Source: Octopus vulgaris (taxonomy: Eukaryota). Taken from it: a stretch of 64,000 nt of DNA. Positions 2,761 to 41,780 of this stretch are shown here, piece after piece; positions within the stretch are counted from its first letter, which is position 1, and each line of letters begins with the position of its first letter. The stretch spans positions 62,062,001 to 62,126,000 of the forward strand of contig OX597822.1 in assembly GCA_951406725.2 (NCBI GenBank), read 5' to 3'. A program made the translations under genes and the position numbers. The notes beneath the pieces were generated by a model. That model did not search any database, was not told where the DNA came from, and saw only the letters and a list, made by a program, of their open reading frames with translations.

Positions 2761-3574
2761 CCAAAGAGCCGAGGTAAGGTTTGTGTTGGCTGAACTCTGT
2801 GAGTGTGTGTGTGTGTGTGTGTGTGTACGTGTGTGTAAGTAGATAGATAGATTATCAGCACTATTACTATCATTATCATCATCACCATCATCATCAGTGA
2901 TTTTTCCCCTTTTTTTTAGGTGGGGTCCTATCGGTCAAAAAAAGTTCAAATGCCTACTACTAGTACTAGCATTAAGAAAAATTACGGAAGGGCTGTTCTG
3001 TATTGTTTGTGAATAAAGAAGTTGTGTTCGACCAGAGAGAATCTTAGCATCACTATTTTTTTTTTCCATATGCGTTTGTGTTATTGCAATAAAAAGTGTT
3101 TGTATATTTCGTGTAAGGTAGTATTGTGGAGGTTGAAGTTGACTTTTCTAGAGATGTTTGTATGTCCAGTTAGAAGAACAGGTGTGTTTTTGCAATAAAA
3201 AGTATATGTTTACATTTATATTTGAATATTCAGGGAGGAAGCAAAGAAAAGTCAGATTTTCATAGAAAGTTTTAAGGTTTTGTGAGTCCACAAAAAGAAA
3301 AGCGTGATGTTTTTAGAGAGAAGAAAAAAAAAGGATGCTTACAGAGGCAATTGTGGGTGTATGTTTGAAAACTGTAGATATGTAAAATTGTAAATTTCTT
3401 AACTTATTTTGAAGAGAATTTTAAATACTCACAAGATATTGTAGATGTTCCAGTCTTTGACAGCTATTTTCCCCGTTGTCAAACTGGGTCATATTAGTGT
3501 TTCTATGGCTTTCGGCTACTTAATTGTCAGCGCTGTCAAGGCTGGCGCTCCACCTCCTTATTATTATTATTATT

Positions 3575-8454: not shown

Positions 8455-9440
8455 CGGTGAGTTTGGTTGAAAATTCCTGGGAAGTTCCGAGGATTTTCTA
8501 ACTTCCGGTAAGTTTGGTCGAAAAATTGCTAAGTTCCGACGAATTTCTAACTTCCGGAAAGTTTGGTCGAAACTGCCTGGGAAGTTCCGAGGATTTTCTC
8601 ACTTCCGGGAAAGTTGTTCGAAAACTTCCTGGGAAGTTCCGATGATGTTCTGACTTCCGGCAAATTTGGTCAAAAATTGCCTGGGAATATCCGATGATTT
8701 TCTAACTTCCGGCAAATTTGGTCGAAAACTTCCTGGGAAGTTCCGAGGCTTTTCTAATTTCCGGGAAGTTTGGTTGAAAACTGATTAGGAAGATCCGAGT
8801 ATATTCTAACTTCCGGTAAGTTTGGTCGAAAACAGCCCGGGAAATTCCCAGGATTTTCTGACTTCCGGGAAGTTTGGTAGAAAAATTCCTGGGAAGTTTC
8901 GAGGATTTTCTAACTTACGGAAAGTTTGGTCGAAAACAGCCTGGGAAGTTCCATGGACTTTCTAACATCCGGGAAATTTGGTCGAAAACTGCCTGGGAAG
9001 TTCCGGGTAAATTCGTCGAAAATTTCCTGGAAAGTTTCGAGGATTTTCTTACTTCCGAGAAGTTTGGTTGAAAATTACCTGGGAAGTTCCGAGTATTTTC
9101 TAACTTCCGGTAAATTTGGTCGAACACTTCCTGGGAACATCCGAGGATTTTCTAACTGCCTGAAAGTTTGGCCGAAAACTTCCTGGGAAATTCCGATGAT
9201 TTTCTAACTTCCGGGAAGTTTGGTCGAAAACTGCCTGGGAAGTTCCGGGGACTTTCTAACTTATGGGAAATTTGGTCGAAAACTACCTAGGAATTTCCGA
9301 AGATTTCTAACTTGATGGAATTTTGGTTGAAAACGTCCTGGCAAGTTCCGAGTATTTTCTCTCTTCCGGGAAGTTTGGTCGAAATCTGCCTTGGAAGTTC
9401 CGAGTATTTTATGACTTCCGGGTAGTTTGGTCGAAAACTG
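8455..9440. repeat. 52-bp tandem satellite; resumes at 10140-10335
   Basis: Unit gaagtttggtcgaaaacttcctgggaagttccgaggattttctaacttccgg; period 52 (tttgg at 8821 and 8873). Confidence 0.95.
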
Positions 9441-9444
9441 CTTA

Positions 9445-10135
9445 ACGGTTCGACAAACGTGATCGATAAATTGACTTAGCGGTTCGTCAAGCGAGATCGA
9501 TAAAATGACGTAGCGTTTCGCCAAACAGGTTCGATAAAATGATCTAGCCATTCGACAATCGTGATCGATAAAATGCCATAGCGGTTCGCCAAAGGAGATC
9601 GATAAAATGACGTAGCGCCTCGCCAAAGGATATCGATAATATGACGTTGCGGTCCGCCAAACAAGATAGATAAAATGACGTAGCGGTTCACCAAGCGATA
9701 TCGATAAAATGAAGTAGCGGTTCGCCAAACGAGATCGATAAAATGAAGTAGCGGTTCGCCAAACGAGACCGATAAACGGACGTAGCGGCTCGCCAAATAA
9801 GATCGATAAAATGACGTAGCGGTTCGCCAAACGGGTTCGATGAATGGTTTAGTAGTTCGACAAACGACATCGATAAAATGACATAGTGGTTCGCCAAACG
9901 GGTTCGATAAAATGACTTAGCGGCTCGCCAAACGAAATTGATAAAATGACGTGGCGGTTCGACATACGAGATCTATAAAATGACGTAGCGGCTCGCCAAA
10001 CGAGATCGATAAAATGACGTAGCGGTTTGCCAAAGGGTCAGATAAAATGATTTAGCGGTTCGACAAATGAGATAGATAAAACGACGTAGCGGTTCGACAA
10101 ACGAGATCGATAAAATGACTTAGCTGTTCGCCAAA
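9445..10135. repeat. 34-bp tandem satellite nested inside the 52-bp array
   Basis: Unit gttcgccaaacgagatcgataaaatgacgtagcg; period 34 (ttcgcc at 9721 and 9755). Confidence 0.95.
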
Positions 10136-10335
10136 TGATGAAAACTTCCTGGGAAGTTCCGAGGATTTTCTAACTTCTGGAAAGTTTTGTCGAAAACTTC
10201 CTAGGAAGTTCCGAGGATTTTCTCGCTTCCGGGAAATTCGGTCGAAAACTTCCTGGGAAGTTCTGATGATTGTCTAACTTCTGCGGGAAATTTGGTCGAA
10301 AACTGCCTGGGAAATTCCGAGAATTTTCTAACTTC

Positions 10336-10665
10336 ATTCCAGACATACCAAATGTCGTTAAATGCCAGACATTCTAGATATTCCTGACATTCCGGATATT
10401 CCAGACATTCAAGGCATTTAATGACATTGGAATATCAGGAATATCTGGAATGTCTCGTACGCCTGGAATGTCTGTGACATTCCTGACACTCCAGAAATTC
10501 CTGACATTTCTGACATTCCCGAAATCCTTTACATTCCAGACATTCCTAACATTCAAGATATTTCAAACATTCCTGGCATACGAGACATTCCTGACATTCG
10601 GCACATTTCCAGACATTCTTAACATTCCAAACATTCCTGACATCCCAGACATTTCTGAAGGTCCC
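10336..10665. repeat. 9-bp tandem repeat (ACATTCCWG) with a short inverted block
   Basis: acattccag/acattcctg units; inverted tggaatatc/tggaatgtc units at about 10428-10473. Confidence 0.9.
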
Positions 10666-10682
10666 AAGAAATTCCCCCGCTT

Positions 10683-11365
10683 TGGAATGTTCATCATTCC
10701 GTCCTCCCCTTCCCCTTCTCTGGAATGTTCAACATTCCCTTCTCCCCTTCCTCTCTCGAATCCCACTGTCTGGAATATTCAACATTCCTTCCTCCCCTTC
10801 CACTCTCAAATCCCCCTCTCTGGAATGTTCAACATTCCTTCTTCCCCTTCACTTCACAAATAACCCTCTCTGATATGTTCACCATTCGTTCCTCCCCTTC
10901 ACTTCTCAAATCCCCCTCTCTGGAATGTTCAACATTCCTTCTTCCCCTTCCCCTCCTAAATCCTCCTCTCTGGAATGTACATTCCTTCATCCCATTCTTC
11001 CCCTCTCAAATCCCTCTCTTTGGAATCTTCAACATTCCTTCCTCCTTTTCACTTCTCAAATCCCCCTCTCTAGAATGTTCAACATTCCTTCCTCCCCTTC
11101 ACCTCTCAAATCCTCCTCTCTGGAATGTTCAACATTCCTTCCTCCCCTTCACCTCTCAAATCCTCCTCTCTGGAATGTTCAACATTTCTTCCTCCCCTTC
11201 ACTTCTCAAATCCCCCTCTTTGAAATGTTCAGCATTCCTTCCTTGTCTTCCTCCCCTTCCCCTCTCAAATCCCCCTCTCTTGAATGTTCAATATTCCTTC
11301 CTCCCCTTCACCTATCAAATTCCCCTCTCTGGAATGTTCAACATTTCTTCCTCCCCTTCACCTTT
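10683..11365. repeat. 50-bp tandem satellite
   Basis: Unit tggaatgttcaacattccttcctccccttcacctctcaaatcctcctctc; starts at 10721, 10771, 10821, 11121, 11171. Confidence 0.95.
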
Positions 11366-16387: not shown

Positions 16388-19300
16388 GCATGTGTGTATA
16401 TGTTTGTCCCCCAACCAACATCACTTGACAACTGATGCTGGTGTGTTTACGTCCCCGTGACTTAGCGGTTCAGCAAAAGAGACCGATAGAATAAGTACTT
16501 ACAAAGAATAAATCCTGGGGTCGGGTCACAGTCACATGACTGAAACAAGTAAAAGAGTATATAACCAAAGGACAGGCAATATGAACAATGCCTGCGTGAA
16601 ATCATAGGTGTTAAGTTCAAATCTGGCCTGCTACAAATCTGTACTGCATCACAATATATCATTTGAATTTTATTTATTCATCTAGCATTGTATGGGCATA
16701 AAATTTATCATGACAGGCTTTTATAAAGTTAGGTTCATATTTTTATTTTTGTTTTGCATTTTAACCTTTCATCATGTAAAAAGTAGAAAATGGGATAACA
16801 AACGTCTGCTTTTCACAAGAAATGATGGCTCACAAAAGGCCCTATATATTCAGTGTAGTGTTGTTTCTAACTCAAATCTGAAGCTATCATTTTCATCATC
16901 ATCATCATCGTTTAACATCCGTTTTCCATGCTAGAATGGGTTGGACGGTTCCTGGATGCCCTTCCTAATGCCAACCACTCCATGAGTGTAGTGGGTGTTT
17001 TTTACGTGCCACCAGCACGGAAGTCAGTCAAGGCGGTGTTGGCATCAGCCACGTTCGGATGGTGCTTTTTACATGTCACCGGCACAAGTATCACAACTAC
17101 AATTTCCATTTGATTTTTATTTTGATGTTGTTGTACTTGACTCCTTGTGATCCAAGCTACTTTTGATGGGCTGGAGCTGCTATGTGAAACAGCCATGAAC
17201 TCACGTTATTTTGGGGGTTTTCGCTGTTACAGCATATCTTCACCTCAAAAGCTCTTCAAAAACAAGCACAGCCAAGCTAATGCTGAAAATCATGTTGCTG
17301 AATCACTGAAAAAAGTACTAGTTTTAATTCTAAAGGAACTTTTCTGAAGTTGGGTGGCCTTTCTGTTGAAAAACCATTAATCTTTGCTTCATACCATGTG
17401 GCATATAAAGTGGGCAAATCAACGAAGTACTATAGTTGCAGATCTTGTCAAAGTCATGTGCACTGGAAATGAAACAATTTTGAGAAAAGAACCAAGAATA
17501 AAATTTAACAAGTGTCCCAAACAACTGAATCAGTGATGTGAATATTTTGAACCAAATCCTCTCAGACAGCAGAGCTAGTCATTTGAAAATCTCTATTCAA
17601 CTGGACCAGTTGACTGATCAAGATCCAGCAAGCTGAGACACTGACACAAATCTAACTTGTTACCAACAAAGGGTGAGTGAAGCTAAACCACCCTTTTGCA
17701 CCAAATCATGGTAGGTTCTGTAGATTCGGGTGCTTAGAGTGGAATTGAGACCCAATGACAAGGTGTTGCTACAGACGTAGTAATGTAGAAGAGGCAATTT
17801 TACAACAATGAGAAAATGTGGTGGGTTGTGTGTGAATATTCCCCAAGTGAGCAGTACATACCAAGCCCAGACCTTGCTGTGACCCATATTCTAGGAAAAC
17901 TCTTACTTGTTTCAGTCATTTGACTGGAACACTGCCTTTAGTCGAGCAAATCGACCCCAGGACTTATTCTATCAGTCTCTTTTGCCGAACTGCTAAGTGA
18001 CAGGGACATAAACATTCCAGCATCAATTGTCAAGCAATGCTAGGGGGACAAACACATATATATATATACATATATACGACAGGCTCCTTTCAATTTCCAT
18101 CTACCAAATCCTCTCACAAGGCTTTGGTTGGCCCAAGGCTATAGTAGAAGACACTTGCCCAAGGTGCCATGCAGTGAGACTGAATCCAGAACCATGTGGT
18201 TGGTAAGTAAGGTACTTACCACACAGCCACTGAAACTTTTTTTTTTGTTAATCAGTGTTGAAATACAAAATCTTTTCAACCATTGCTGTTGCTCCATCAG
18301 AGTGCACAAAACCCATGGTTTTAATGTTTGACAAGTCTTTCATAAATTACATCACATCTTTAAGGTAACTTTATGGTGAGGAGTACATCAATGACAATGC
18401 CTGTGAGGGAAAAGTTCTGGCTTTGTGAAAATCTGAAAACAAGTACAATTGCAAAAGATGTTCAGAAGACCCAGTAGAATTATGTGCTACTTCTAGCAGA
18501 ACGGGTAAGCACACTGAGGATTCCTTATTAGCAGTTACTGTTATTCAGCTCTAGTAAACCACATCTATGACCCAAGGCACTTCACTCATAACCCTCCATC
18601 TTTTATTTTTCCAGTGTTATTTAAAATATTTCTTTTTTGCCCTCTCTCTAAATTTCTAGAGTAAAATTTGTACTAACAAGTGTCCTTACGAGTAAAAATG
18701 TTCGTGCATTTGCGTTTAAGTCAACCAGTCAGGTCCAAATGATTATTCGTTAAATTTTTTTCCAGTCTGATCACAACTGTCCAACGGACAGGAACGTGAA
18801 ACAAAATTTTTTGTGATATTTTTGCAGCTTTAATAAAATGTGTGTGTATATCACCATGACCGACCAGGCTATCAGATGTTGTTATACATCGCGCTTCGCA
18901 TTGTCTTAGCCTTCAAATGACGCCACCCCGCTGGCTAAGTGAGCAGGCCAGCAGAAGAAAGAAAGTTGTGGTGAAAGAGTACAGCAGGGACTGCCACCAC
19001 CCCCTGCCGGAGACTAATGGAGCTTTAGGTGTTTTCGCTCAATAAACACTCACAACGCCCGGTCTGGGAATCGAAACCGCAATCCTACAATCGCGAGTCC
19101 GCCTCCACACACACACACACAACACGAATCTGTTTCAAGTTATGTATGTTTAACCAGCTGATCTAGCCAACCGGCCATTAAAGACGATTCCATTTTTACT
19201 TTTCATGTTTTGGGTATCTCTTATACAGGTTACAAGACAGATCTTGGCTTTAAAAGGATATAGTCATGCTTGGAACGCTTTCAAAAGGACCGTGCTCACG

Positions 19301-20647
19301 TTTAGAAAGTGCTTAGACGGTTTTCGTGCCTCCGCACATGAACAAATGTATCAGACATTTTCGAAAAATTAATGTAACAAGTATGGCGCTCACTTCGAAA
19401 GCACATGTGCAAAAACCTATGAGCTAAGAGACAAAAATGAGTGATCTTAAGCGGCAACAGTTGATTAATACGAAGAATTTCGAACTAATCAAGCCCATTT
19501 CAGTTGTCTCCCTTGCTTTTCCAATGACTAAGATAAATGCGAAGTTACCTCCCTTCAACCACTAGCTCTATTCAATTAGTCTTTATTCCACACCTAAAGT
19601 ACAGGAAATTGATATCCTCCTTCCCCTCTTATTTCTACAATGGTACATCTACTTGCGCCCTTTTTTATTTGTATTATTTTGGTCACCAATTAATGAAGGG
19701 CTCACTACATGTGAAAACATTCCTGCAAAATCATTTTAAAAAAATACTAAGGTTAGTAAAATCAAAAGTTATACCCATTGTACATACACGTGTATATCAT
19801 ATTGACCTGCTTATATTATACACACACACGTTTACGGCGAATCGAGCCTATTGCTTTGGTCTGGACAGCACAGGAAAATAAAAAGACACTTCAGCAATTA
19901 GCTCAAGTATTTGTAACGTCTTAATGCAAATATTTTACACAATTTCTTATACAATAAGGGTGGAGTTAATGAATATACCACCCGTTTTCGGCATAAAAAG
20001 CCTGAACACCGAGTATTCGTATTCTTTACCTCCACCGCAATCCAGAGTGATCTGTGGTTGCAAAACATAAGCGTCGCATGTTGTCTAGCTCCAGCTAAAA
20101 TTGTGATCAAAACCATTTTACTCATGACCAGACTTCCGAAATACCATAACAAAAATCGGGATCGAATTCCTGTCCAACCACCTCCTCAGACCTTAGGAGT
20201 AGCAACCACGACGACTTTCGTAACGTTTACAGAACACATATTGAAACACTTATAACCCACAATTTTAAAGAAAAAAAATCGTAATCTATAAGCATCGTAC
20301 TTTGCAGGATTAACATTCCGAAAACCCGGAAAAATTCCCTAACTTAATACAAGTCTAATCGACATATCATTAAACATCCACTCTTCCATGGAGCAAGCAA
20401 TGAGTATATTTATTAGTTTCAATTTGCATATGCAGGATATTACAAAAACAAAAAAGGGACAGAAAGGAAGGATTCTGTTTCTCAGTCACCATGCACCCTG
20501 AAGTACACATTATCCCTAATCTCAATCATGAAATATTCCACAAGAATGACACAGACGGAAACTGAAAACCCATCATACACAGTACCTGCCCATGTTACCA
20601 TTAGAATGAACCAACATGCGCCGCTGAAGGAATTTCAGCTCACTAAA

Positions 20648-20720
20648 GTCTTCCAAAACTGTTTCTAACAAGGAATTCACTCGACACGAAATTCTTCATA
20701 TATCGATAAGACGGGGAAAG
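20648..20720 (-). pseudogene. Decayed copy of the SNORD12-like snoRNA
   Basis: Retains tctttccccgtcttatcgatatatgaaga and ttttggaagac, but lacks boxes C and D. Confidence 0.6.
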
Positions 20721-20868
20721 ACATAATTAGTGCGAATTATAAGTAGACTTACAAGACTGATACACACAAAACGAAACGAGGTGCACAGGAAAAAATCACA
20801 AATCTAAACTATAAAAGCTGGCAGAACTATCGCAGGCGACAATCATAAAAACATGGTTAGCTCGTCTT

Positions 20869-20973
20869 CCAAAATTGTCTCAGACAAAAAAAATTGGCTT
20901 GTAAAGACAAGGTATGTCTTCATATATCGATAAGACGGGGAAAGAATTTGATAATCATCACTGCCAATTTTGG
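20869..20973 (-). ncRNA. Box C/D snoRNA, SNORD12/SNORD106/snR190-like, copy 4
   Basis: Minus strand: stem ccaaaattg, C box GTGATGA (20961-20955), guide TTCTTTCCCCG, D' CTTA, C' ATGAAGA, D box CTGA (20883-20880), stem caattttgg. Confidence 0.85.
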
Positions 20974-21558
20974 ATAGACAAAATCCATGAAGAGAAAGGA
21001 AACACTAAGATACATACGTTTGTATACAGTACGAAACTAATATCAAATTACAAGTACTACCTACTTCCAGGGGGGGACTAAAAATAAAAGGACCAAAGGA
21101 ATTGCCTTAACGCATTGATGATAGCTAAACTCGAATAAACCTTCTAAAACATGCACACTAAGGGAATGAATCTAAAGACGGTCGTCCCCATATAGATGAG
21201 AAAGTAAAACCGACTATTTTCAATTAAAAAAAAAATATTAAGAAACGAGAAAATCGAGCACCCGGAAACCTCACACACTTGTCCAGCAGACGTCTGAAAA
21301 ATGCAATGGATCAAAGGGAAAGCTACACAGAAAATACACATCCTCATAAACAGAACATCGGCGGAATTCACACGTATGTGTAGTAGCGGGGGGGGCTGCA
21401 CAGTATCTCCTTAAGCTATCAACGGATTTACAAGTATTAAAATATATTGAAGTCATCCTCTGATCAAAATCCTACACAAGTTTTAAAGAGAAACGATGGA
21501 AAGAATGTTGTAACAAGCTGACCTGTAAAACCAAAGAGGATACGCTCAATCAAGTCTT

Positions 21559-21662
21559 CCAAAATTGTCTCAGACAAAAAAATTGGCTTGTAAAGACAAG
21601 GTATGTCTTCATATATCGATAAGACGGGGAAAGAATTTTGTAGTCATCACTGCCAATTCTGG
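21559..21662 (-). ncRNA. Box C/D snoRNA, SNORD12-like, copy 3
   Basis: C box 21650-21644, D box 21573-21570, same guide; candidate acceptor ttggttttacag about 45 nt downstream of box D. Confidence 0.85.
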
Positions 21663-22405
21663 ATAGACAAAATCCATGAAAGATAAAGTAAATGGTTCTG
21701 GAGTCAGCCCCACAGCGTGGCACCCTGGGTAAGTGTCTTCTAAAGCCTTGAGTGGATTTGTCAGACAGTTAACTGAAAGCCCATCGAATGTGTATATATG
21801 TGTGCGTGTATATCTGAGTCTGTGCCCCCACATCGCTCGACAACCGATGCTGGTGTTTACGTCCCCGGAACTCGGCAAAAGAGATCGATAGAATAAGTAC
21901 TAGGCTTACAAAGAACAAGTTCCGGGAGTCGATTTGCCCGACTAAAGGCGGTGCTCCAGCACGGCCATAGTCAAATGACTGAAACAAGAGGTACACGTAC
22001 CTTTTCCCAGGTAAGACTAAAAACAAAAGGACCAAAGAAATCGCCTTAACGTAAGGATGATGATACCTAAAATTTACCTCGAATAAGCCTTCTAAAACTA
22101 TCGCCGACAAAGAAATGAATTGAAAGACGGTTTGTCTTCATATATCGATGAGACGTGGTGCTGAGACTTAAATAAAAACGACTATTTTCTGTAAAAAAAA
22201 AAACTATTAAGAAACGAGACAATCGAGTACACTTCTGTACAATGCTAGAGAATCAAAGGAAAAGCCACATCCTCGAACAGAATATCGGGGGAAATCCACG
22301 TGTTGGAAGAGGGCCACGGATTTACAAGTAATAAGATATATTGAAGTCATCGCCTAATCAAGATCCCACGGAAAGTTGTAAGCTGACCTACGCTTAATCA
22401 GTCTT

Positions 22406-22509
22406 CCAAAATTGTCTCAGACAAAAAAATTGGCTTGTAAAGACAAGGTATGTCTTCATATATCGATAAGACGGGGAAAGAATTTTGTAGTCATCACCGT
22501 CAATTTTGG
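22406..22509 (-). ncRNA. Box C/D snoRNA, SNORD12-like, copy 2
   Basis: C box 22497-22491, D box 22420-22417, same guide and terminal stem. Confidence 0.85.
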
Positions 22510-22770
22510 ATAGACAAAATCCATGAAAAAAAGAATAGAAACACTAAGATAGTACAAAACTAATATTAATTACAGAAAGTTCCTTTTCCTATTGGGTGGG
22601 GGACCAAAACAAAAGGACCTCAAGAGATTGCAAAGTCATCGTCTGATCAAAATCCTACACAAGTTTTAAAAAGAACCGATGGGAAAAGTATAACAAGCTG
22701 AACGTGAATGACTTTAAATATATTTAAGATCGAATCTACACTGTAAAACCAAACATAAGCTCAAAGTCTT

Positions 22771-22874
22771 CCAAAATTGTCTCAGACAAAAAAATTGGCT
22801 TGAAAAGACATGTAATGTCTTCATATATCGATAAGACGGGGAAAGAATTTTGTAGTCATCACCGTCAATTTTGG
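22771..22874 (-). ncRNA. Box C/D snoRNA, SNORD12-like, copy 1
   Basis: C box 22862-22856, D box 22785-22782; candidate acceptor tttggttttacag at about 22741-22753. Confidence 0.85.
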
Positions 22875-23029
22875 TCGGACTTTATGAGCTAAATTATGGG
22901 ACATATCTATATAAGAAAATCGACAAATAAAAACATCCTTAAGAGATATAAAACTGCAATAGCGAAGTCAAGAAAACAGAAAATGCTACGGAATCGACTT
23001 AACTAGGAAGAGAAATAAAACTATGGTAT

Positions 23030-23150
23030 AAATATACATACAAACCATCACTCTTCATTCACTGAAAAGAAAAAGTTATAATTAAAATGTAAGTGAAGAC
23101 CAGCACGTGGTGACAGCCAAGAGAAAAAGAAATTATCGAAGCAAACACAT
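23030..23150 (-). promoter_or_regulatory. Candidate TCT/5'TOP-like start and first exon of the snoRNA host gene
   Basis: Minus strand ttcgataatttCTTTTTCTCTTggctg near 23130, with a possible donor atg|gtttgt near 23045; locally CpG-rich. Confidence 0.35.
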
Positions 23151-23987
23151 GTATAACAGAAGTGGAAGAGACTGAGACGATGAAATTTGTGCTTATATAG
23201 TTGTCTTATGACGTGTCACAAACCGACCAATTACAATGACTTTAACAAACATCACGAAGCAATATCCTATCAGCTAATCAAAATAGCCGTAATATTTCGT
23301 GCAAAGGCGATACCGTCAACGGAATTGACAGTCTCCCAAATTGCTAAAGATAACAGCCAAACCTTGTCTATATTCTGCGATTTCAAAGCAACCACCGTAG
23401 TCAGCAATTTCTTCATGTAAAGAACACTTTTCCAGTTATATAAGAATAAGAAACAATTGAAGAAATATTCCTCGGCCATTCTTTACAATAAATATAGTAT
23501 AGAACATTTTTACATTTTATCAGATTTTTAAAAAGCAAAAGAATTTTTCTTCGCACCCTCTTCGTAGAGAATTGCTGTTCTGCTGTCGTACAGATTAAAA
23601 GATACATTGAATAGTGATGTTTGGTTTATGTCGAAATGTTGCCGCTGGAGCATGAAAATTAAAAGCCCATGTTTCGTTTTTAATACCGTAATAGTCATGT
23701 AAAGACGAAACATCGCCCAATGAAAACTTTAAAATTCTGAGTGCACCTGAGCACTGTATACAATAATTTCATTATTATTATTAGAGAACATACAACCGCG
23801 CGCACGCACACACACTTATATATATCACCTGTAGATACCATCGGATGTTGTTATATACCACTGTACACAATGCCATTTTCTGATCTCTTTGATGTCACTC
23901 AGCAATTGAACGGGTCCGGCCCACCATAACTTGTGTTGTTATTCTGCGGTCATGTCGTTGATACTGCTACGTTCTCCAATTGTATGG

Positions 23988-24197
23988 ATATGCTGAAAAG
24001 TTCCTGTCTTTGGGTAAAAGAGAATACGGGAAGATCAGTTAATTATGATTCTATTCAACATACTTCCCTCCCAAGTTCACACACTTATTACAGCGGTCAT
24101 TCAGATTTTCTAAGCCCTTTAAAAGAATTCGGAAGTTTGGACCTCCAACCAGGCCTTTCGCAACACCCTTAAAGCCAGGAACTTTTCAGCACCCCCT
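23988..24197. mobile_element. Mariner-derived MITE
   Basis: TIR gctgaaaagttcctg / caggaacttttcagc; related inverted copy at about 11910-12045. Confidence 0.7.
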
Positions 24198-25429
24198 AAT
24201 CTCTCTCGGCATTACTATACATAAATGCCCCAAGAGTCCCTCCTAGCGTGTGGCATTTATGTGTAGTAATGCCCTCTATATATAATATAAATAACTATAT
24301 TTAAGAGAAAAATTTATGGTTTTTTTCTTCTTATGAGGTTTTCGCGCTAACTACTTGATAAATTCTTATAAAGATTTTATCCTATTTTAAAATTATATAT
24401 ATAGATAGATTATAACCAAGGTATAATATCTATGCAATATACTGCTTGTAGAAAACCCAATTATTAATACACAAGTGTTTTTACATTATATATTTTAATA
24501 ATTACTGGTATTTTTATATATTGTATACGTAAAGCATATTATGCTATATATGTATATATATTGTTAAAATGGTATTTTTAAAAAGATAAATAAATGGACA
24601 TAATATCATGTCTAAAAGTTGATGAATACCACCTCTTGATCTCCTCCATTTTCTTATTGCTGTGTATATATATATATATATATATATTTATACACTCACT
24701 TATAATATCATCATGACTTAATATCCGCTTCCTTGCTGGCATGGTATGCACACACACACATTTTGTGTGTACAGTTCAATGCATGACTACTATTAGTAGA
24801 CAGCTCCACATCTATTGTCCATGTTGGCATAGGTTGGACAGTTTGACCAGCGCTGGCTAGCTGGAAGGCTGTACCATACTCTAGTCTGATTTGGCATGGT
24901 TTCTACAGTTGGATGCCTTTCGTAATGCCAACCACTCCAAGAGTATAATGGGTGCTTTTACATGCCTTTGGCATGAGTGCCATTTACGTGATGCCAGTAT
25001 CTGCCATGACTACAATTTCACTTAGCTTGATGGGTCTTTCTCAAGCACAGCATAATGCCAAAGGTCTTGGTAATTTGTCATTGCCTCTGTGTACTCAGCT
25101 ATACTTCTGGTAATGATATACAGAGCATATATGGAATAAGCACTGTTTATATCATTTGTTCTCAATGTATGCTTCATCATCATGATTAATTTGCATTCTC
25201 TGTATTATTGAATGTTCCAAGTACAATTAAACGCTGAACCACAACAGTTCACCAGGGGGACACTTTATTGCATCAATATTTATTGCTTCAAATGAGGTGG
25301 CAAGCAGGCTGAATTGTTAGCACACTGGGCAAAATGCTTTGCCATCTAGAGTGGATTTAAGCATTTAAGCGGATATTTCTACAGACTTCAGGCATTGACA
25401 ATACAGTACCCCATATTTTTTTTACATTA

Positions 25430-31388: not shown

Positions 31389-33094
31389 TTATTCATCAAA
31401 TTGGCCATGAAAGCTGTACACAGATAAGTAGCTGCGGGCTGGACAAGGACATTAATGTGATGAGGATGATAATGACAAAAATGGGAGGGGCACTGACCGA
31501 TTTAAAATTCAAGGAAAATTAATATACAGTAATTAGATACAGGTATAAAAATTCCAAAAATAAAAATTCGTTTTTCATTCATCTTCCTTGTCTGGGCCCC
31601 AAGTAAGTTTCCTGCCACCTGCAGGAAAGCCTGCATTGGCAGGCCCGGACGGAGGGACACAAAATCTTCATTATTGCAGCTCCTCCTGACCTCAATTAGT
31701 TCTTCTTGGATGACGACCTCTGCAGCCACCTGGGGAGGCCAACATGGACCATCTATACAGACCGAGTTGTATTATTCTCGGTCTAGAAGACTGTCCAAAT
31801 ACATCTCAACAGGCCCTCCCTTGAGGTAGAAAATGAAAAGTTCCACCTCTTCCTCACGGGGAGGGACCTCAACCTTTTCTGTCAGTGGCACAATCCCCAC
31901 TAACAGAGCTTCTCGCTCCGGTGGCACACTTTCCACCAGAGGAGCCTCGGGTTCAGTTGGCGGCACAACAACATCTGCCAACCGTCTCTCGTTTCTCTTC
32001 CTTCTCCTTTTTCTTTTTGCAGTTGCGGAAGTCAGGGACTCTATCGGCACACCCGGGAGGTTCTCCTCCTCTCCCACAAGCTGCACTTCAACTGGTGAGC
32101 AACCACCATTGCTCACCTTTCTCTTTCTTTTCATTGAAACCAACGCCTCGATGACTTCCTCCGTTTCTCCCTGCAATGGGAGAGCGGAGGGCACCTTCGC
32201 CTTTCCCTACTCCAGGACCTTGCCACGACCCCGGGGGCAGTCCTTCTTAATGTGGCCTGACTCCAGGCACGAGTGACACTTGGGGGTAGGGTGACCCTCA
32301 AGTATCACAGGATACCTTGAGTCATCCATTTTCAAAAAGTCAGGGAAAGTCATTTCACCCACGGTCACTGGGGTCCATAGAGTCAAAGTTGCCTTTGCAT
32401 CCTCCCATTCGACCGCAGGCTTTATCTCTATATGTAAGAGCCTGGGCCTACTATCCCCCAGGCTGCGCCGGATGGCATCTGCAATCCACTCTGCTTCAGT
32501 GCCCGGGGGCAGACTACATACCCAGGCCCTTATCACCTTCTTCCCACGAAATGTAGGAAGAAACAAAATCTCCTCCCCTTCCAGGGGCTGGCCTGCCACA
32601 GTGCAAGCCTCCTCAGGGGTGTCAAAAAGCAGTCACACCGTGGCATATTTGACTCCCCTGGTTACATAATAATTTTTGGCTGGCAAACATTTTGCCAGCT
32701 CTTTATTAATAATACCCTTGTCGAAGAGGGCGATGGCGTCATGCGACCTAGAATAGATGTGTAGTACCACCGTCCTCCTCTCAAGGTTTTTAATCCATTG
32801 CTTAGGTGGGACAATCTCCCACTCTAAGGCACTTTTTATATTTGCTATATTAAAAATCAGTTCAAAAGAAGAAAGTCCAAATAAATTAACAAGAAGTTCA
32901 AAAAGAAATAAACAAGTCCGTCCAAAAAATGAATAAAATATAAAATCCAAAAGAAACGCAAAAACAGTTCCAAAAAGAAAGAAAAATGGCCTTATGCTGA
33001 TGTTGTTCTTTTTTCTTCAGTTCAATATTGGACAGAGCCAACACACTCACATCCACCTCGGTTCTCTGTAAGAAGCAACAGCAACGCACGTGCC
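31389..33094 (-). mobile_element. ORF1-only non-LTR retroelement (HAL1-like) with CCHC knuckle
   Basis: 16-bp TSD cgtaagcaagctactt (31373-31388 and 33095-33110). Four listed ORFs (32950-32633, 32599-32207, 32194-31772, 31729-31502) share one frame, separated only by stops. CHSCLESGHIKKDC knuckle; AATAAA at the 3' end; no EN or RT. Confidence 0.75.
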
Positions 33095-34727: not shown

Positions 34728-35538
34728 TGTGCTTGAGGAAACCTATTGAGTCAAGTACATCAACATCAAAAAATCAAATGGAAATTATAGTTGTGATATC
34801 TGTGCCGGTGGCATGTAAAATGCACCATCTGAATGTGGCCGATGCCAGCGCTGCCTTGACTGGCTTCCGTGCTGGTGGCACGTAAAAAGCACCAACTGAT
34901 CGTGGCCGTCGCCAGCCTCGCCTGGCATGTAAAAAGCACCCACTACACTCACGGAGTGGTTGGCGTTAGGAAGGGCATCCAACTGTAGAAACACTGCCAG
35001 ATCAGACTGGAGCCTGGTGCAGCCTCCTGGCTTCCCAGACCCTGGTCGAACCGTCCAACCCATGCTGCATGGAAAACGGACGTTAAACGATGATGATGAT
35101 TGTGTCAGCATCAGGGTGCTTTTTAGCAGATTTGACAAATCCTACCCAAATATTTAACTTTGATAAGTCCACATCGGAGATCTTGTTGTTGGTGTTAATA
35201 GGAACAACAGGCTTAGGAGCAGCTTTCACATTTTTAACTTCGATTTCTTTCGTTGGTGATATTGTCTGGCCTGATATTTGATTTAAATTTCTTTTGTTCA
35301 GAAGAGGTATCTGCTTTATCCCATTACCGATTTCAGCGAGCAGTAACTTCTTTTTGTACTCATCTGCCTCTCTTTTTAATTGTTCATTTTCCCGACAAAT
35401 TTGTTTTTCTTCCTTGTTCATGATATTTTTCATTGCTGTACATTTCACTTCTTCTAACTGCTGTTTTAAATTAGTTAGTATTTCCACGGCATGTAGTGCC
35501 TGTTGACTAAGGTGCTGCATCGCTGATATGGCTGTCAT
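34258..35538 (-). pseudogene. AIMP1: AIMP1 paralog, disrupted
   Basis: Colinear with 39226-40101. SINE D plus microsatellite insertion at about 34661-35102 after KHPDAD; AAG>TAG stop at 34546-34548; original stop at 34258-34260. Confidence 0.9.
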
Positions 35539-36777
35539 CGTTTTGGTAAAAAATGTTATTGCTTAGAAGATAAACGTGTTAAAAAATGAAAAACAATTGA
35601 ATGTTGTTATTTAGGGTGTGAAGTAATACACTGAAATAGTTAACTCTTTTACTGCCGAAAATGAAGTTGCATAGATGCTCTCATTGTCTATCCAAGTTGT
35701 TGTTTAGCCCCAACTTTAATTCTGACAGAGCAGACTTATCCTCAGAAATGTTACAGCCATGACCTTTACATTTTTTTTCTTCAGGTATATCTAGAAGATT
35801 TAGTTACTATTTCTAGCAGGCCAAAATATCGTGACTCTAGTCTCAACATCAAATCTTGTCTGTACGCTAGAGAATCGAAACCACAAATCTAGTATGTTAC
35901 CTATCTGTGATTGCCATTTTCCCAGACATCAGTAACTAAACTAATCCAGCTCATACATGCACAAGTGGCACAATATGGACATTGAATAATCTGATCTTGC
36001 TCCAGCTCATTCTGAATGAAACACACACATCATCATTTAACACCCGTTTTCCATGCTAGTATGGGTTGAAACTGCCCAACCCAAACCAGCATGGAAAACG
36101 GACGTTAAATGATGATGTATATGTGTATATTTGTTTTTCATTAGGCAGAAAACTGCAACCAGTGTCACTCTGTTTTGGCAGGGTTCTTACAGCTGGATGT
36201 CCTTCATAACATGTTACAGAGTGGACTTTGTAATTATATATATAATCAATTGTTATTAATCCAAACAAAGGAAGGAATAGAAGAAATGGAGTTGAAAATA
36301 CACAGGGAATATATCAATTAAATTATAATTTAAAATAGAGGAATACACTTGACCGATTTGTATGTACTATAACTAAATAATCTATTTTCGTGTTCTGAAC
36401 TGCAAACATTTACATAAACGATACTGTTAAGATATTTTTAAATATAATTTATAGAATAAATACGATTAACGAAAATATGTTCAATCAAGTGTACCAAGCG
36501 CGATGTCTTATTAGCAACATTCTGCATGTGTAAGGATGGACTTGTGATTGTATTTTCGCTAATCCTTTTACTCTTTTAGTCATTTGACTGCAGCCATGCT
36601 AGAGCACCGCCTATAGTCGAGCAAATCGACACCGGGACTTATTCTTTGTAAGCCCAGTACTTATTCTATCGGTCTCTTTTGCCGAACTGCTAAGTGACGG
36701 GGACGTAAACACACCAGCATCGGTTGTCAAGCAATGCTAGGGGGACAAACACAGACACACAAACACACACATATATA

Positions 36778-38075
36778 CGAGGGACGTTCAATAAGTAATG
36801 CCTCTGACCCACTTGCAGTTGTTCGATCTAGCTAGTTCGATTTTGCATGTGCAATTATTGATATCTCTATAGATTAAGTGGCAAATTACAGCTCTGAGAT
36901 AATTGTGGTTTCTGATTTACAGGTGTTTGAACTGAGTCAAGTGTGAAATGGAGCCTGTTGAGTGTCGAGCAGTGATCCAGTTTTTGTATTTGAAAGGACG
37001 CACACCACAGGAGACTTTTGATGAAATGAAAGTAACTTATGGTGATGATGCCCCATCATATGACCTTGTAAAACGCTGGCATCGTAAATTCAAACATGGT
37101 CGGAACTCTGTGGAAACAGCTCCCAGATCTGGTCACCCCACTTCTGCCATTGATGAGGTATCTGTCCGTCAAGTTGAGGATGCTATTTTGGAAGATCGAT
37201 GCATAACTATTCACCAAATAGCACATGAGGTCAAGATTAGTACCGGGTCTGTGGAAACTATCATTCATGACCATTTGCATATGCAAAAGGTGTCTGCCAG
37301 ATGGATTCCCAGGTTGCTCACACCTTTCCAGAAGCAAGAACGCGTCGAGTGCTCGAGGATGAATTTGGAGATGTGCCAAGAAGATGAGTCAAAATTTTTC
37401 AAAAGACTCATTACACAGGATGAAACCTGGGTCCATCACTATGATTCAGAGACCAAAGCCCAGTCAATGCAGTGGAAGCACTGTGACTCACCTCCTCCAA
37501 AGAAGGCAAGGGTGCAGCCCTCCGCTGACAAGGTCATGCTGACAGTCTTCTGGGACCAGAACGGAGTAGTGATGACAGATTTCCTGGCAAAGGGTACCAC
37601 AATTACAGGAGCCTATTATGCTTCACTTTTGAGGAAATTAAGAGAAGCTATCAAAATCAAGAGGTGGGGCAAGATCAGCAAAGTCATCCTCCTCCTGCAG
37701 GACAACGCTCCAGTCCACAACTCGCGTCTCGCCAGATCAGAAGCACAGGCGTGCTGCTATGAACTCCCCCCCCCCACCCCCCTACGCTCCTGACCTTGCA
37801 CCCTCTGATTTTCACCTCTTCCAAGCCATGAAGTTGTTTTTGAAAGGAAAGCATTTCACAGATGATGCAGCCTTGATTTCTAAAGTCACGTCGTGGTTGG
37901 AGGACCAAGCTGGGGGTCTTCTACAAAAACGGTCTCCAGCGCTGCATCAAACGATGGGAGAAATGTGTAACTCTGGGTGGTTCCTATGTAGAAGAAGACT
38001 AATAACTGTGCCAAGTTTCGTTGCTCTACTGCTATGGGAAGTAGGTCAGGGGCATTACTTATTGAACGCCCCTCG
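36778..38075 (+). mobile_element. Full-length mariner (about 1.3 kb, Himar1/irritans-like), frameshifted transposase
   Basis: TIRs cgagggacgttcaataagtaatgcc / ggcattacttattgaacgcccctcg with TA TSD; WIPRLL, DETWVHHY, DNA and YAPDLAPSDF motifs; frameshift in the poly-C at about 37766-37782. Confidence 0.95.
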
Positions 38076-39225
38076 TATATACATATATACGACAGGCTTC
38101 TTTCAGTTTCCATCTACCAAATCCACTCACAAGGCATTGGTCGGCCCGGGGCTATAGCAGAAGACACTTGCCCAAGATGCCACGCAGTGGGACTGAACCC
38201 GGAACCATGTGGTTGGTTAGCAAGCTACTTACCACACAGTCACTCCTGCGCCTATACTGTTAAGATATTTTTAAATATAATTTATAGAATAAATACGATT
38301 AACGAAAATATGTTCAATCAAGTGTACCAAGCGCGATGTCTTATTCGCAACATTCTGCATGTGTAAGGATGGACAAATAAATTTGGCACTCGTGAATGTA
38401 TTTTCGCTAATCCTTTTACTTCTGTTAAGTTTTACAATTTTATTTTAAAACGAAAGTCTATAATGAACCAAGGCATTCGATAACAGTATTTAAAGAAAGT
38501 GAGCGTCCCATGATAGGTGTAAATCGATGGAATGTGTATTGTATAGTACTGCCCATTCACCTCTCGATTCTTACTACAGCTGTTTTATATTTTAAAACTA
38601 CTGTATGAACAAACTAACAAAGGAGACTACGTTGCAACTAAGCTCGTTAGAAAAGCAGCTAATCTCCTTCGAACCATCCCCTGCATCTTAAAAGAGACAT
38701 GTTGGATAATAGTGTCTGGGGTACATTATTCCTGAAAATAAAAGTGGATGGTCATGGCTGGAATGGCTTTGATCTGTCTACAAGAGAACAGCCAACTTCG
38801 GGTTAAACAATAATATTTGTACGAAAATACACATTTTTACAGACAATTCAAGGATCGTAAGAAAAAAATTACTTAAAAATTATGTAAGAAATATTTTAAT
38901 GGGGTGGGGAAAATAAATTCCTTTATATCTTTCAAATGTATATTTAATTTGCTTTCATTTTTTGTTCAGTCAATAATTACATGAAGTATAACTATAGCAA
39001 TTTACAGTTGACATATTTCTACACTTAGCCCTCAAGCAAAAATAAACACATAATTACCATAATAATTCAGTATTTATTAATACTTGTATGTTGATACTGA
39101 AAAGTTAGAGTGAAAAAAAAAAAAAAAACAGTTTAAAAAAGTCAAAAGGAAGGAAGGAGGGATGGAAAAGTCAAAAACTTTCAATCTGGTTTCACAAACA
39201 TTTTCTCCAGCTGTAAAAGTTCTGA

Positions 39226-40101
39226 TTAACAAATCTGACTGTCAGATACTGATGGTACTGTCACCTGTCCTTTGCCCTCGATTATAAGTGGTTCACCTTT
39301 ATAGGTAGCAACGCAGCTGTTGTTGGTTTTTACGTCTGGTTTAACGAAGTCCCAAATTTTGTTTTTAGGAGTGATGACGCGTTCCGGTTCGCCGGGGTAT
39401 TTGGCACACACGACACGGTCACCCGGAACACTTCCTGGTGGTGGTCTCAACAGTTCAACTTTGTCTCCGTTGTTGGCACCAAGAATCATTCCTTCAGATA
39501 AGACACCACGCAGCTTAGCAGGTTTCAGGTTACTTAAGAAAACACACAAATGGCCCTCAATATCCGACAACGGAACGGCACCAACGAGACCGGAAACTAC
39601 AGTTCGTGGTTTCTCTTCTCCCATATCGACTTCTTCAACGTACATCTTGTCAGCATCAGGGTGCTTTTGTGCAGACTTAACAAATCCTACCCGGATATGT
39701 AATTTGGATACATCCACCTCAGAAGTCTTGTTGTCGGAATTAACGGGAGCAGCTGCCTTAGGGGCAGCAGGCTTAGGAGCAGCTTTCACTTTTTTAACTT
39801 CGATTTCTTTCGTTGGTGAAACTCTCTGGTCTGTAGTTATTTGATCTAAATTCCTTTTGTTCGGAATAGGTATCTGTCTTATCCCATTACCGATTTCGGC
39901 GAGCATTAACTTCTTTTTGTAGTCACCCACCTCGATTTTCAGTCGTTCATTTTCCCGACGGATTCGTTCTTCTTCTTTTTTCACAATATTTTTCATTGCT
40001 ACACGTTTCACGTCTTCTAGTTGGTGTTTCAACTTAGCCAGGATTTCTTCGGCAAGAGTGGCCCGTTGACTTAGGTGCCGGATCGCAGATTCAGATGTCA
40101 T
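39226..40101 (-). CDS. AIMP1: Aminoacyl-tRNA synthetase complex-interacting multifunctional protein 1 (p43/pro-EMAP II), intronless
   Basis: 291-aa intact ORF: N-terminal coiled coil, then EMAP II OB-fold motifs KHPDAD, PRTVVSGLV, NLKPAKLRGVLSEGM, PPPGSVPGDRV, VATYKG. Confidence 0.95.
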   Translation of the reverse strand: MTSESAIRHLSQRATLAEEILAKLKHQLEDVKRVAMKNIVKKEEERIRRENERLKIEVGDYKKKLMLAEIGNGIRQIPIPNKRNLDQITTDQRVSPTKEIEVKKVKAAPKPAAPKAAAPVNSDNKTSEVDVSKLHIRVGFVKSAQKHPDADKMYVEEVDMGEEKPRTVVSGLVGAVPLSDIEGHLCVFLSNLKPAKLRGVLSEGMILGANNGDKVELLRPPPGSVPGDRVVCAKYPGEPERVITPKNKIWDFVKPDVKTNNSCVATYKGEPLIIEGKGQVTVPSVSDSQIC

Positions 40102-41780
40102 CCTTCTGATTTTTTACCTTTTATATACTTTTTCAGATCTTTGTTGTAGAATAGATCGCACGTTGCATCAGACAACAGATTAATTATCGTTATACTTTCA
40201 TATCTCTTTTACAAGAAAGCTTCCTGGGTTAAAATTTAGAGTTAACTCCCCTGATATGAAATTATCTCATTTCAGATTTGTCCTTTCATTATCCCTCTAT
40301 CAAAGAAGTCGTTCTTACGTTCTTACGAACAAAATGCTTGGGGGCATTCCTTCCGGTTTTACGTTCTGAGTTCAAGTGCCACCGAGGTCGACTTTACCTT
40401 TCATCCTCTTGAGATTGATAAAATAAGTACTAGTCGAGCACTAGGATCGTATGTGATCGACTGGCCCACTCCCCCAGAATTACAAGCCTTGTTCCTATAG
40501 CTGAAAAGATTATTCCGGGGCCGGTAAAATAAGTTTCCAGTGAAGTACCGGTGTCGATGTATTTGACTGTTGTCGCTTTCAAAATTTTCGGCCTTTTACT
40601 GAGATAAGAAATCAATTTCCGTTTCAATTCTCGTTGCAGTCTTTGGGGCGATGTTTCGTTTTATAATCCAGAAAGTGAAGTGAAGCAACCGAAATTAGCA
40701 TGTATTCTTTGAAATGTAATAAAGTGATGCAAGCCTAACGTTACAAAATGATAACTGTGAATTTTGGTGGTGGTGGTGTTGGGGAGATGTTTTTGGTTTA
40801 TTTTATTATATCTTTTAACTTTTACCTACATCAGTCATTGGACTGTGGGGCCATGTTGAGGTACTGCCTTAAAGGGTTTAGTCGAACAAATACACTCTTT
40901 GTAATTGTTTTTTTCTTTTTATAAGTTTGGTACTTGTTCTATCACTGCTTTTGGCAAACTACTAAGCTACGGGGCTGTAGATAAAACACTGCTTGTCAAG
41001 CAGTGGTGGGAGCATACACATACACAAAAACACAGATGTGTGTGTGTACTGTTTCGTCATTGAAGAGATCAGGAAACAAAATACTCCATCTAGTACATTG
41101 CTGTATTCATCATGCACGTATGTTTTCAATGCGTTGCAGGCGTACGATACATAACGACGACGTTTACAAGACGCACAAATATCATCTCTTATCGTTTACT
41201 TGTTTCAGTCACTGGACTGCGGCCATTCTGGGGCATCACCTTGAAGGGTTTAGTCGGACAAATGGATCCCAGTACTTCTTTTTTAAGTCGACCACTTGCT
41301 CTATCGGTCTCTCTTTGCCGAACTGCTAGGTTACGGGGACGTAAGCAAACCAATACCAGCTGTTAAGTGATTGTGGGGGACAACACAACACACACACACA
41401 CACACACATCCATGTCTTCAAGTCAAGAGATTTACGATGCCGCGGCTCAACGATGCTCTGGCATCTAGTGGGCTTAAGGACCGCATCTCTTGTATGAGAG
41501 ACCTGGCATTCGCAAAAGGAAGTCCCACCGTTACGTTGTTTGGTTTACCCCACCCTTCTCTTCCCCTATGTGAGAAGAATATTCCTTAGATTGGTGGACA
41601 AACACTTCACTCAGTCACACAAATACAGACGTTTGTTTTTTCGCCACAACCTAAGGTTATCCTTCAGTTGCGCGCTCAACGTTAAGAAAATTTTAGCGAG
41701 CATCCTTAAGCCGCGAGCAGAGGCAGGATGCTCATGTTGACAAATATTATTCAAATTTCTTATATATATATATATATATA

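Follow-up and report, generated by a model that had tools for sequence, protein, structure and literature searches.

What does a cluster of nearly identical ~104-nt units on the minus strand of an Octopus vulgaris contig encode, how did it multiply, and how did copies of it come to lie elsewhere in the genome joined to a retroelement? The cluster is situated in a 64-kb stretch of contig OX597822.1 (C9:62062001-62126000 in our numbering, hereafter the window), and genome searches were made against the 2.8-Gb assembly. Units carrying the boxes of a C/D small nucleolar RNA (snoRNA), a guide duplex with the 28S ribosomal RNA (rRNA), a tandem origin of the array, and nine fusions with a short interspersed element (SINE), seven of which lie under one target-site duplication, were directly observed. 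Taking these together, we regard it as quite probable that the units are guides of the SNORD12 group for the third G of a helix 73 motif, and that their trimmed RNA was repeatedly captured by the enzyme that mobilizes the SINE.

Four intact box C/D units of ~104 nt each were located on the minus strand, namely c1 (22770..22875), c2 (22405..22510), c3 (21558..21663), and c4 (20868..20974), with three decayed units alternating with them. Each intact unit presented, in this order, GUGAUGA (box C), the guide UUCUUUCCCCGU, the D' box CUUA, the loop UCGA, the C' box AUGAAGA, the second element AGCCAA, a U run, and CUGA (box D). In c1, box C was placed at 22861-22856, the guide at 22847-22836, D' at 22835-22832, C' at 22824-22818, AGCCAA at 22800-22795, and box D at 22785-22782. 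Boxes C and D near the ends, a terminal stem, and internal D'/C' boxes were found in 4/4 intact and 0/3 decayed copies. A preliminary description of this DNA had reported four near-identical ~104-nt minus-strand units with all four boxes, which was borne out by the exact box positions; its 9-bp terminal stem (CCAAAAUUG/CAAUUUUGG) stood as well, whereas the mismatch it noted in the third copy is a G-U wobble within the stem, and the stem of c2 and c4 extends to 10 bp. The full stem formed in the minimum-energy folds of c1 and c2, and c3 and c4 went into alternative pairings (z -2.0 to -3.2). The bodies were identical pairwise in 91-97 of 100-101 columns, and the 60 nt downstream in only 36-46 of 63-69 columns; over the 30 nt upstream, c2-c4 were alike in 26-27 of 30-31 columns and matched c1 in 16-17 of 34-36. 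The intact copies have been kept by selection or gene conversion, and the two are not separable here.

A search with the Rfam models at their gathering scores gave no match anywhere in the window. In the E-value mode, SNORD12 (RF00581) was the best model for all four intact units, scoring 40.0 (c1), 38.3 (c2), 36.0 (c3), and 35.6 bits (c4) with E-values from 4e-6 to 7e-5 and with matches covering the whole model, and the fungal snR107 model (RF04328) ranked second at 26-33 bits (gathering score 44). Because all four SNORD12 scores fall short of the 43-bit gathering threshold, which speaks against the assignment, the array is not an RF00581 member by score; it is placed in the same orthologous group, SNORD12/snR107/snR190, of which snR107, snR190, and SNORD12/B/C have been named as orthologues (PMC11971394). 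The covariance-model match anticipated earlier for the locus was therefore obtained in rank but not at the gathering score. The UCGA loop and the C' spacing of the intact units agreed with the Rfam consensus, and the Rfam ranking, the guide, and its target together supported the earlier view of a box C/D snoRNA of the SNORD12/snR190 kind, to which S. pombe snR107 also belongs. The array is thus an invertebrate member of a well-studied snoRNA group, which automatic annotation skips because it scores under Rfam's threshold.

A metagenome scan with the core pattern gave 10 matches, six of them distinct; every match was a complete C/D unit and carried GCC(A/G) ahead of box D. The search pattern fixed the core, so that only box D and GCC(A/G) count as independent findings. 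Each of the six distinct relatives was a single copy within the 1-3 kb of surrounding DNA, and one of them, from an unrelated eukaryote (L098, 399-572, minus strand), is located immediately 5' of an exon for ribosomal protein L31. Around the octopus array, no further snoRNA was recognized in 16500-20700 (one chance match), and an antisense scan of 16500-24500 yielded no additional snoRNA (two isolated 10-mers).

To place the guide on its target, the ribosomal DNA (rDNA) array of this genome was located on contig C20, one unit was read, and a 20-kb rDNA stretch was used for the duplex search. For each intact copy, the longest duplex was that of the guide with the octopus's own 28S sequence GGCGGGGAAAGAA (13 bp including one G-U), which was also the best over 28S, 18S, and 5.8S (-20.5 kcal/mol). 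An antisense element of at least 10 nt thus stands directly before D'; the complementarity to large-subunit rRNA described earlier was retained, with its length corrected from 11 to 13 bp including the G-U. Counting by the +5 rule from D' led to the third G of GGGG in helix 73 (28S position 3490, numbering from where the Rfam match begins in L017), so that the site and nucleotide named in the preliminary description were confirmed against this genome's own 28S, and the target sequence was identical across 7/7 rDNA-like loci compared. The intact units are accordingly predicted, from the sequence, to guide ribose methylation of this G. Both rRNAs carry large GC-rich expansions, the 28S spanning L017 1818-6708 (minus strand, 4,891 nt) and the 18S measuring ~2,640 nt; the rDNA repeat on C20 is ~18.3 kb long, and 11 further rRNA-motif matches are scattered over other contigs.

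In the related systems, snR107 methylates G2483 via its first element and SNORD12 methylates G3878 (PMC11971394), whereas S. cerevisiae snR190, which carries the same guide, leaves G2395 unmethylated and acts as a chaperone (PMC8536666). The latter case tells against methylation in octopus, as do a hairpin predicted over box C' in all four intact copies and, in c1 and c2, a 5' end predicted to pair with some of the guide. These same features, together with a D' box that reads CUUA instead of CUGA, would be expected if the RNAs were made and bound helix 73, but served as folding chaperones without methylating, like snR190. We consider this decidedly unlikely, since S. pombe snR107 (D' CCUA) and human SNORD12 both methylate (PMC11971394), the UCGA loop and the C' spacing follow the consensus, and the domain-I pairing linked to the chaperone role is lost here.

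That loss concerns the second element, which in snR107 (25S 333-343) serves 60S biogenesis and in human is described as relatively small (PMC11971394). The homologous domain-I site in octopus, CUAAAUACGGGGACGAG, paired poorly with it (-6.7 kcal/mol, one rDNA copy read); the complementarity to domain I that is a trait of the orthologous group was thus not found, though the GCCA motif is still kept. For c1-c3, the 20 nt that precede box D formed their best duplex just 5' of the guide target. The C'-D segment of c1 paired with this site at -21.5 kcal/mol, a value equalled by 0/2000 base shuffles and 1/758 rRNA windows. Less favourable were the segments of c2 (-18.9 kcal/mol, with 22/2000 shuffles and 11/758 windows as good) and of c4 (marginal at -16.9 kcal/mol, with 105/2000 shuffles, 15/758 windows, and a different site ranking first), the segment of c3 being identical to that of c2, so that the statistics cover c1, c2, and c4; the extra pairing near the target was largely G-U, a further point on the negative side, and three G-U-rich candidate sites for the D-side element had similar energies. 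A methylation guide at box D was rejected, as no contiguous Watson-Crick element of 10 nt abuts D. HBII-99, mentioned next, is presumably SNORD12. In modelled energies, the extra pairing just 5' of the target fits that described for snR190 and HBII-99, both listed among snoRNAs with extra base-pairing (PMC3116282), and the second element (CAAGCC and the U run) would then help by pairing just 5' of the target rather than with domain I. The octopus case shows that drift of the rRNA can uncouple the second element from the domain-I site, a point relevant to whether SNORD12 in animals still has the chaperone role of snR190/snR107.

Searching the genome with c3 gave at least 15 matches, four local and 11 dispersed (counts that are lower bounds), and all 11 dispersed loci were inspected. 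With 15 genome matches, four of them local, a high-copy transposon fragment was ruled out, in line with the preliminary description. At 9/11 dispersed copies, the same SINE followed in sense orientation 8-52 nt downstream, full length from its head in seven cases and 5'-truncated in two, and an A tract of at least six separated snoRNA and SINE in 8/9 fusions. A single target-site duplication of 7-18 nt enclosed snoRNA and SINE in 7/9 fusions (L021, 18 nt; L008, 17; L005, ~11-15; L006, 12; L010, 11; L009, 9; L022, 7). The arrangement is that of template-switch chimeras, with the small RNA 5', the retroelement 3', and the same orientation in 9/11 copies, and with one duplication in 7/9. Given 45,321 exact 16-base SINE heads in the genome, each copy would have one in sense within 50 nt by chance with a probability of ~4e-4, which stays below 1e-2 even with ten times as many diverged heads. 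L005 may record two successive jumps: its snoRNA and its truncated SINE are set apart by 30 nt of other sequence that has an A tract on either side.

The ends of the dispersed copies were informative about the RNA. None of the 11 ran past the terminal stem into the spacer; their 5' ends lay 0-5 nt before UGAUGA, or were truncated, and their 3' ends, where box D was reached, lay 2-4 nt after CUGA, the A tract blurring the last base. Because the UGAUGA-to-CUGA span in c1 is 80 nt, the trimmed ends suggest a mature RNA that is likely ~85-88 nt long, consistent with the ~85-90 nt RNA with ends near C and D expected earlier. The best-matching parent was c1 for 5/11 dispersed copies and the c2-c4 types for the rest, which implies that at least two source genes were once transcribed in the germ line. 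The nine fusions differ in linkers, SINE lengths, and source copies, and many copies sharing one junction, as in a new SINE family, were not found; they appear to be dead ends rather than a self-spreading family. Such fusions provide RNA-free evidence of expression and of RNA ends.

In the mechanism we favour, a non-coding host would release the units, which would be cut from introns and trimmed to ~85-88 nt; the reverse transcriptase of a long interspersed element (LINE) would prime on the SINE tail, copy the SINE up to its 5' end, and then jump to the 3' end of the trimmed, probably A-tailed snoRNA, so that snoRNA and SINE would insert together in one event. A switch by the enzyme rather than an RNA ligation may be preferred from the chemistry of the ends, ligation and template switching being the two listed routes to chimeras (PMC13174262). 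Stringent LINEs have been argued to move plain A-tailed RNAs rarely (PMC4476161), which would explain why no plain copies were found here. Octopus LINEs of the RTE, Dong-R4, CR1, and L1-Tx1 types have been reported active (PMC13282606, PMC9115989), and the available parts of these two papers make no mention of snoRNA-SINE chimeras.

Several loci fit this capture less well. No duplication was called at L007, which lies in a SINE array, or at L019, whose 3' end is lost; the duplications of L022 (7 nt) and L009 (9 nt) are short; the SINE was absent at 2/11 copies, L020 (which continues as a (TAA)n tract) and L023 (37 nt only, within a TA repeat); L009 had no A tract, and L019 ends before box D. 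The two loci without a called duplication, together with L010, where an A-rich run stands on either side of the SINE, would suit a course in two steps, in which an A-tailed snoRNA retrocopy was inserted and the SINE landed later in its A tail, as in Weber's reading of mammalian snoRNA-SINE neighbours (PMC1687206). A second insertion of that kind should, however, duplicate the A tract behind the SINE, whereas the SINE tail directly meets the duplication of the sequence that precedes the snoRNA in L006, L009, L021, L022, and L025 (the last a fusion of another C/D RNA, see below). Moreover, a plain snoRNA with A tail and duplication did not occur among the 11 dispersed copies, and A tracts are not a favoured landing site of this SINE, for only 32 of the 45,321 heads follow ten As. 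We therefore judge the two-step course highly improbable and retain the single-event capture.

To see what the SINE does when no snoRNA is selected for, 30 of the 7,901 copies that carry an exact 42-base head (the first in order) were used as controls. A duplication was called in 14/30 and none in 16, SINE copies with the second tail type having had no end called; in the 14 with a duplication, 0-9 extra bases preceded the head and no A tract lay outside the duplication. In L041-L070, this SINE has two alternative 3' tails and frequently forms head-less dimers or longer arrays. The loci at which ten As precede the head were classified in 30 of the 32 cases. Twelve of them held a bare A tract (at most five other bases) inside the duplication, and the other 18 comprised seven with SINE-type RNA (six independent), two with the present snoRNA, one with another C/D-like piece (antisense to 28S over 15 nt), one with what looks like the 3' part of U6 (L128), and seven unclear.

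The bare tracts at 12/30 loci count against an A-tailed passenger, for the As could be enzyme-added. They thus support a variant in which the events were single, but the A tract was made by the reverse transcriptase through untemplated T addition or slippage, so that the snoRNA need not be adenylated. The A-rich nature of the 0-9 extra bases in unselected copies, the possibility that a snoRNA end in GA or GACA could be gripped by a T overhang, the missing A tract of L009, and the reported requirement of template jumping for untemplated addition (PMC8857657), by which enzyme-made As stay possible, all lean the same way. On the other hand, long tracts are as rare as 32 in 45,321 heads and yet occur in 8/9 fusions, bare tracts would also result if the enzyme jumped to any poly(A) RNA and stopped early, and A-tailed snoRNA and snRNA (small nuclear RNA) intermediates are known and retropose in mammals (PMC1687206, PMC4476161). 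Enzyme-made As, which alter one step of the favoured mechanism only, are hence a possible but not the preferred source of the tract, and an A-tailed snoRNA is retained in what follows.

Whether other RNAs were captured in the same manner was assessed with the pattern CUGA + A tract + SINE head, which matched 17 times (control, 0). Two matches were the present snoRNA, four were other C/D RNAs (L025, L032, L036, and L038), four were possible C/D RNAs (L029, L035, L028, and L034), and seven were not C/D. L032 resembles SNORD24 (26.7 bits, gathering 41) and L025 resembles snoR77Y (26.5 bits, gathering 52). SINE-free source loci were found for these RNAs: a SNORD24-like gene in L136 (C6:73846077-73849143) at 1501-1567 for L032, and two C/D genes ~280 nt apart in L138 (C2:174744565-174747629), at ~1495-1575 and ~1775-1850, for L038/L036 and for L025. 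L138 probably represents a further host locus for snoRNAs. Besides the present snoRNA, three C/D RNAs whose source loci lie in the genome thus form, as judged from their sequences, the same snoRNA-SINE fusion, and reading upstream of SINE heads is a way to find unannotated snoRNAs. These cases were selected as fusions, so that 9/11 is the only unbiased fusion rate; for the RNAs of L032 and L038, searching the genome gave no additional dispersed copy. We give even weight to the wider proposal that the main route of C/D snoRNA copying in this lineage is hitch-hiking, with the enzyme of one SINE family finishing the SINE and then jumping to A-tailed, fully trimmed snoRNAs and other A-tailed RNAs; if it holds, SINE 5' junctions would catalogue germ-line nuclear RNA tailing intermediates and mature snoRNA ends, and would be a standing source of snoRNA-headed elements.

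Other passengers were noted beside these. At L105, L109, L110, L119, L120, L130, and L131, SINE RNA, an A tract, and the SINE lie under one duplication; these SINE-SINE loci include heads of another tRNA-like SINE family, and L130 and L131 are one event duplicated 45 kb apart. L128 shows, just before 1510, a SINE head fragment, the presumed U6 3' part, an A tract, and the SINE, possibly a three-part chimera, and in L107 and L029 the SINE head is preceded by a C/D-like passenger that is antisense to 28S over 15 and 13 nt, respectively. An 18S 3' end as the passenger at L123 was not accepted, the match being partial only. Rfam at gathering scores gave 0 matches in the 20 scanned of the 30 A-tract loci, an E-value scan of 15/17 CUGA-pattern loci was dominated by microsatellite matches with nothing usable, and ARAGORN recognized no tRNA in 28 A-tract loci.

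How the array itself grew could be read from its spacers and decayed copies. The preliminary description had counted one decayed copy in addition to the four intact ones; this copy, c5 (20640..20745), was confirmed, with 10 nt of the guide, D', and C' remaining and boxes C and D gone, and two more were found, making three. Of these, d1 (22075..22165) keeps the D'-C' region, lacks box C, has a changed box D, and is ~79% identical to the intact copies across 75-90 nt, and d2 (21130..21205) is strongly decayed and lies inside a block homologous to that of d1; like the intact units, all three are on the minus strand. From their common 3' letters, c5, d1, and d2 appear to be of the same unit lineage. 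Self-comparison showed that the blocks c2-d1 and c3-d2 are homologous (68.5% over 645 columns, 22533-22015 against 21688-21076), and that the c1-c2 spacer is the same block minus its decayed copy, which was deleted. The spacers are thus diverged, as had been described, yet homologous to each other. In the spacer upstream of c3, an interspersed-repeat insertion of ~290 nt (21692..21984) is missing from the homologous spacers; sequence resembling it is present in further frames of the window, and this repeat is a common family distinct from the SINE of the chimeras. These homologous blocks show that the duplicating unit was a pair, made up of an intact-type and a decayed-type copy, which multiplied locally in tandem and is now present three times; c1 stands alone, its partner having been lost by deletion. 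An ancestral multi-copy host, raised as an option earlier, was not supported, given the local tandem origin of the copies, the homology of their spacers, and the single-copy state of the outside relatives; since the copies are local duplicates, the multi-copy state looks independent of that in ZFAS1.

A non-coding host on the minus strand, spanning 20580..23200, is a candidate rather than an annotated gene, its sites having been read by eye. A candidate start is marked by a TATA element at 23197-23192 and a pyrimidine-rich start near 23176, candidate acceptors lie at 23062, 22741, 22017, 21523, 21078, and 20624, and candidate donors near 23041, 22001, 21060, and 20585. Over 20400-23400, the longest minus-strand frame that starts with ATG has 74 codons, by which a protein-coding host was ruled out, and a non-coding spliced host is plausible. 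The candidate promoter region (23187-23358) resembles L075 on C4 (70% over 190 nt), which could be an old repeat. An apparent splice junction at C15 was dismissed as a copy of the c1-c2 spacer, already without that segment.

Splicing of this host is challenged by two results: no spliced host retrocopy was found with the queries 22880-23400 and 20300-21530, and dispersed spacer fragments were unspliced in 7/7 cases. These seven fragments stop 12-51 nt before a stem (an eighth match holds upstream sequence only), and all of them keep clear of the intact bodies (P ~0.04 with a conditional uniform null, which is crude, and 0.008 unconditionally). Moreover, the donor before c2 (22582) has GA in the window, where two older dispersed fragments have GT. 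All this hints weakly at a splicing-independent release, in which the copies would be freed by endonucleolytic cuts from an unspliced or polycistronic precursor, not one per intron via splicing. Donor- and acceptor-like sites that recur in register around each unit speak for splicing instead, and the fragments are possibly DNA-templated or non-independent; we thus hold endonucleolytic release to be unlikely and keep release from introns.

Elsewhere in the window, an intronless frame of 295 codons at 39226-40113 (minus strand) contains the tRNA-binding domain PF01588 (E 1.6e-27) and is, we assume, AIMP1/EMAP-II, and a shorter diverged copy lies 4 kb away at 35083-35562 (minus strand). Adjacent minisatellite arrays with periods of 52, 34, 9, and 50 nt occupy 8462-11363, a presumably mariner-like transposase frame with a break lies at 36936-38157 (plus strand), and a zinc-knuckle ORF1-like piece, with PF00098 just under the cut-off, at 31772-32632 (minus strand).

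Among known systems, ZFAS1 presumably has ZNFX1 as its neighbour. In octopus, a zf-NF-X1 search gave a single match, on contig C27 and not on the array contig; synteny with ZNFX1 was hence not found, in a weak test with a short, insensitive profile, and no homology of the octopus host to ZFAS1 is evident. Human SNORD12/12B/12C in ZFAS1 (RF00581; PMC11971394) share with the octopus units the guide, the target G, the D'-UCGA-C' core, and GCCA before D, as well as the residence of several copies in one apparently non-coding locus, whereas the octopus units score below gathering, comprise four near-identical and three decayed local duplicates, and have CUUA as D'. To the snR107 model (RF04328), the guide, D', and loop are nearly letter-identical, and a hairpin near C' is shared with snR107/snR190 (PMC11971394, PMC8536666); unlike in these, the second element of the octopus units misfits domain I of this genome's 28S, and the units are multi-copy. 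The fungal members of the group share a position with U14 (PMC11971394), and no U14 was found at the gathering score in the window.

For the fusions, a literature search that was thin on subscription journals found nothing on this array, on guide C/D snoRNA-oligo(A)-SINE fusions, or on octopus snoRNA retrocopies, and returned only U6-SINE and U3-L1 chimeras and separate snoRNA retroposons. Platypus snoRTE (as cited in PMC4233971) likewise joins a snoRNA to a retroelement-derived 3' part, but is H/ACA-derived and reported to insert at new loci, while the octopus fusions each have their own junction and site. The mammalian Type-1 snoRNA retroposons (Weber 2006, PMC1687206) are alike in the mature 5' start, the end past the last box, and the A-rich tract; those retroposons end 3' in the A tail, and a neighbouring SINE has its own duplication, whereas in octopus the SINE is the 3' end under a shared duplication and the plain form occurs in 0/11. 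The same geometry, with the small RNA 5', the same orientation, one duplication, and independent events, is that of U6-Mon-1 in platypus, U6-AnolisSINE2 in lizard, and U6/U3-L1 in mammals (PMC4476161, PMC13174262), from which the octopus fusions differ in that the passenger is a trimmed methylation-guide C/D snoRNA, an internal A tract is present, the SINE is mostly full length, and the host is an invertebrate. The array belongs to a known snoRNA orthologous group, and the novelty lies in the guide-snoRNA form of a known chimeric retroposition; the fusions matter more than the array itself, as they extend template-jump chimeras, each step of which has a vertebrate precedent, to guide snoRNAs in a mollusc.

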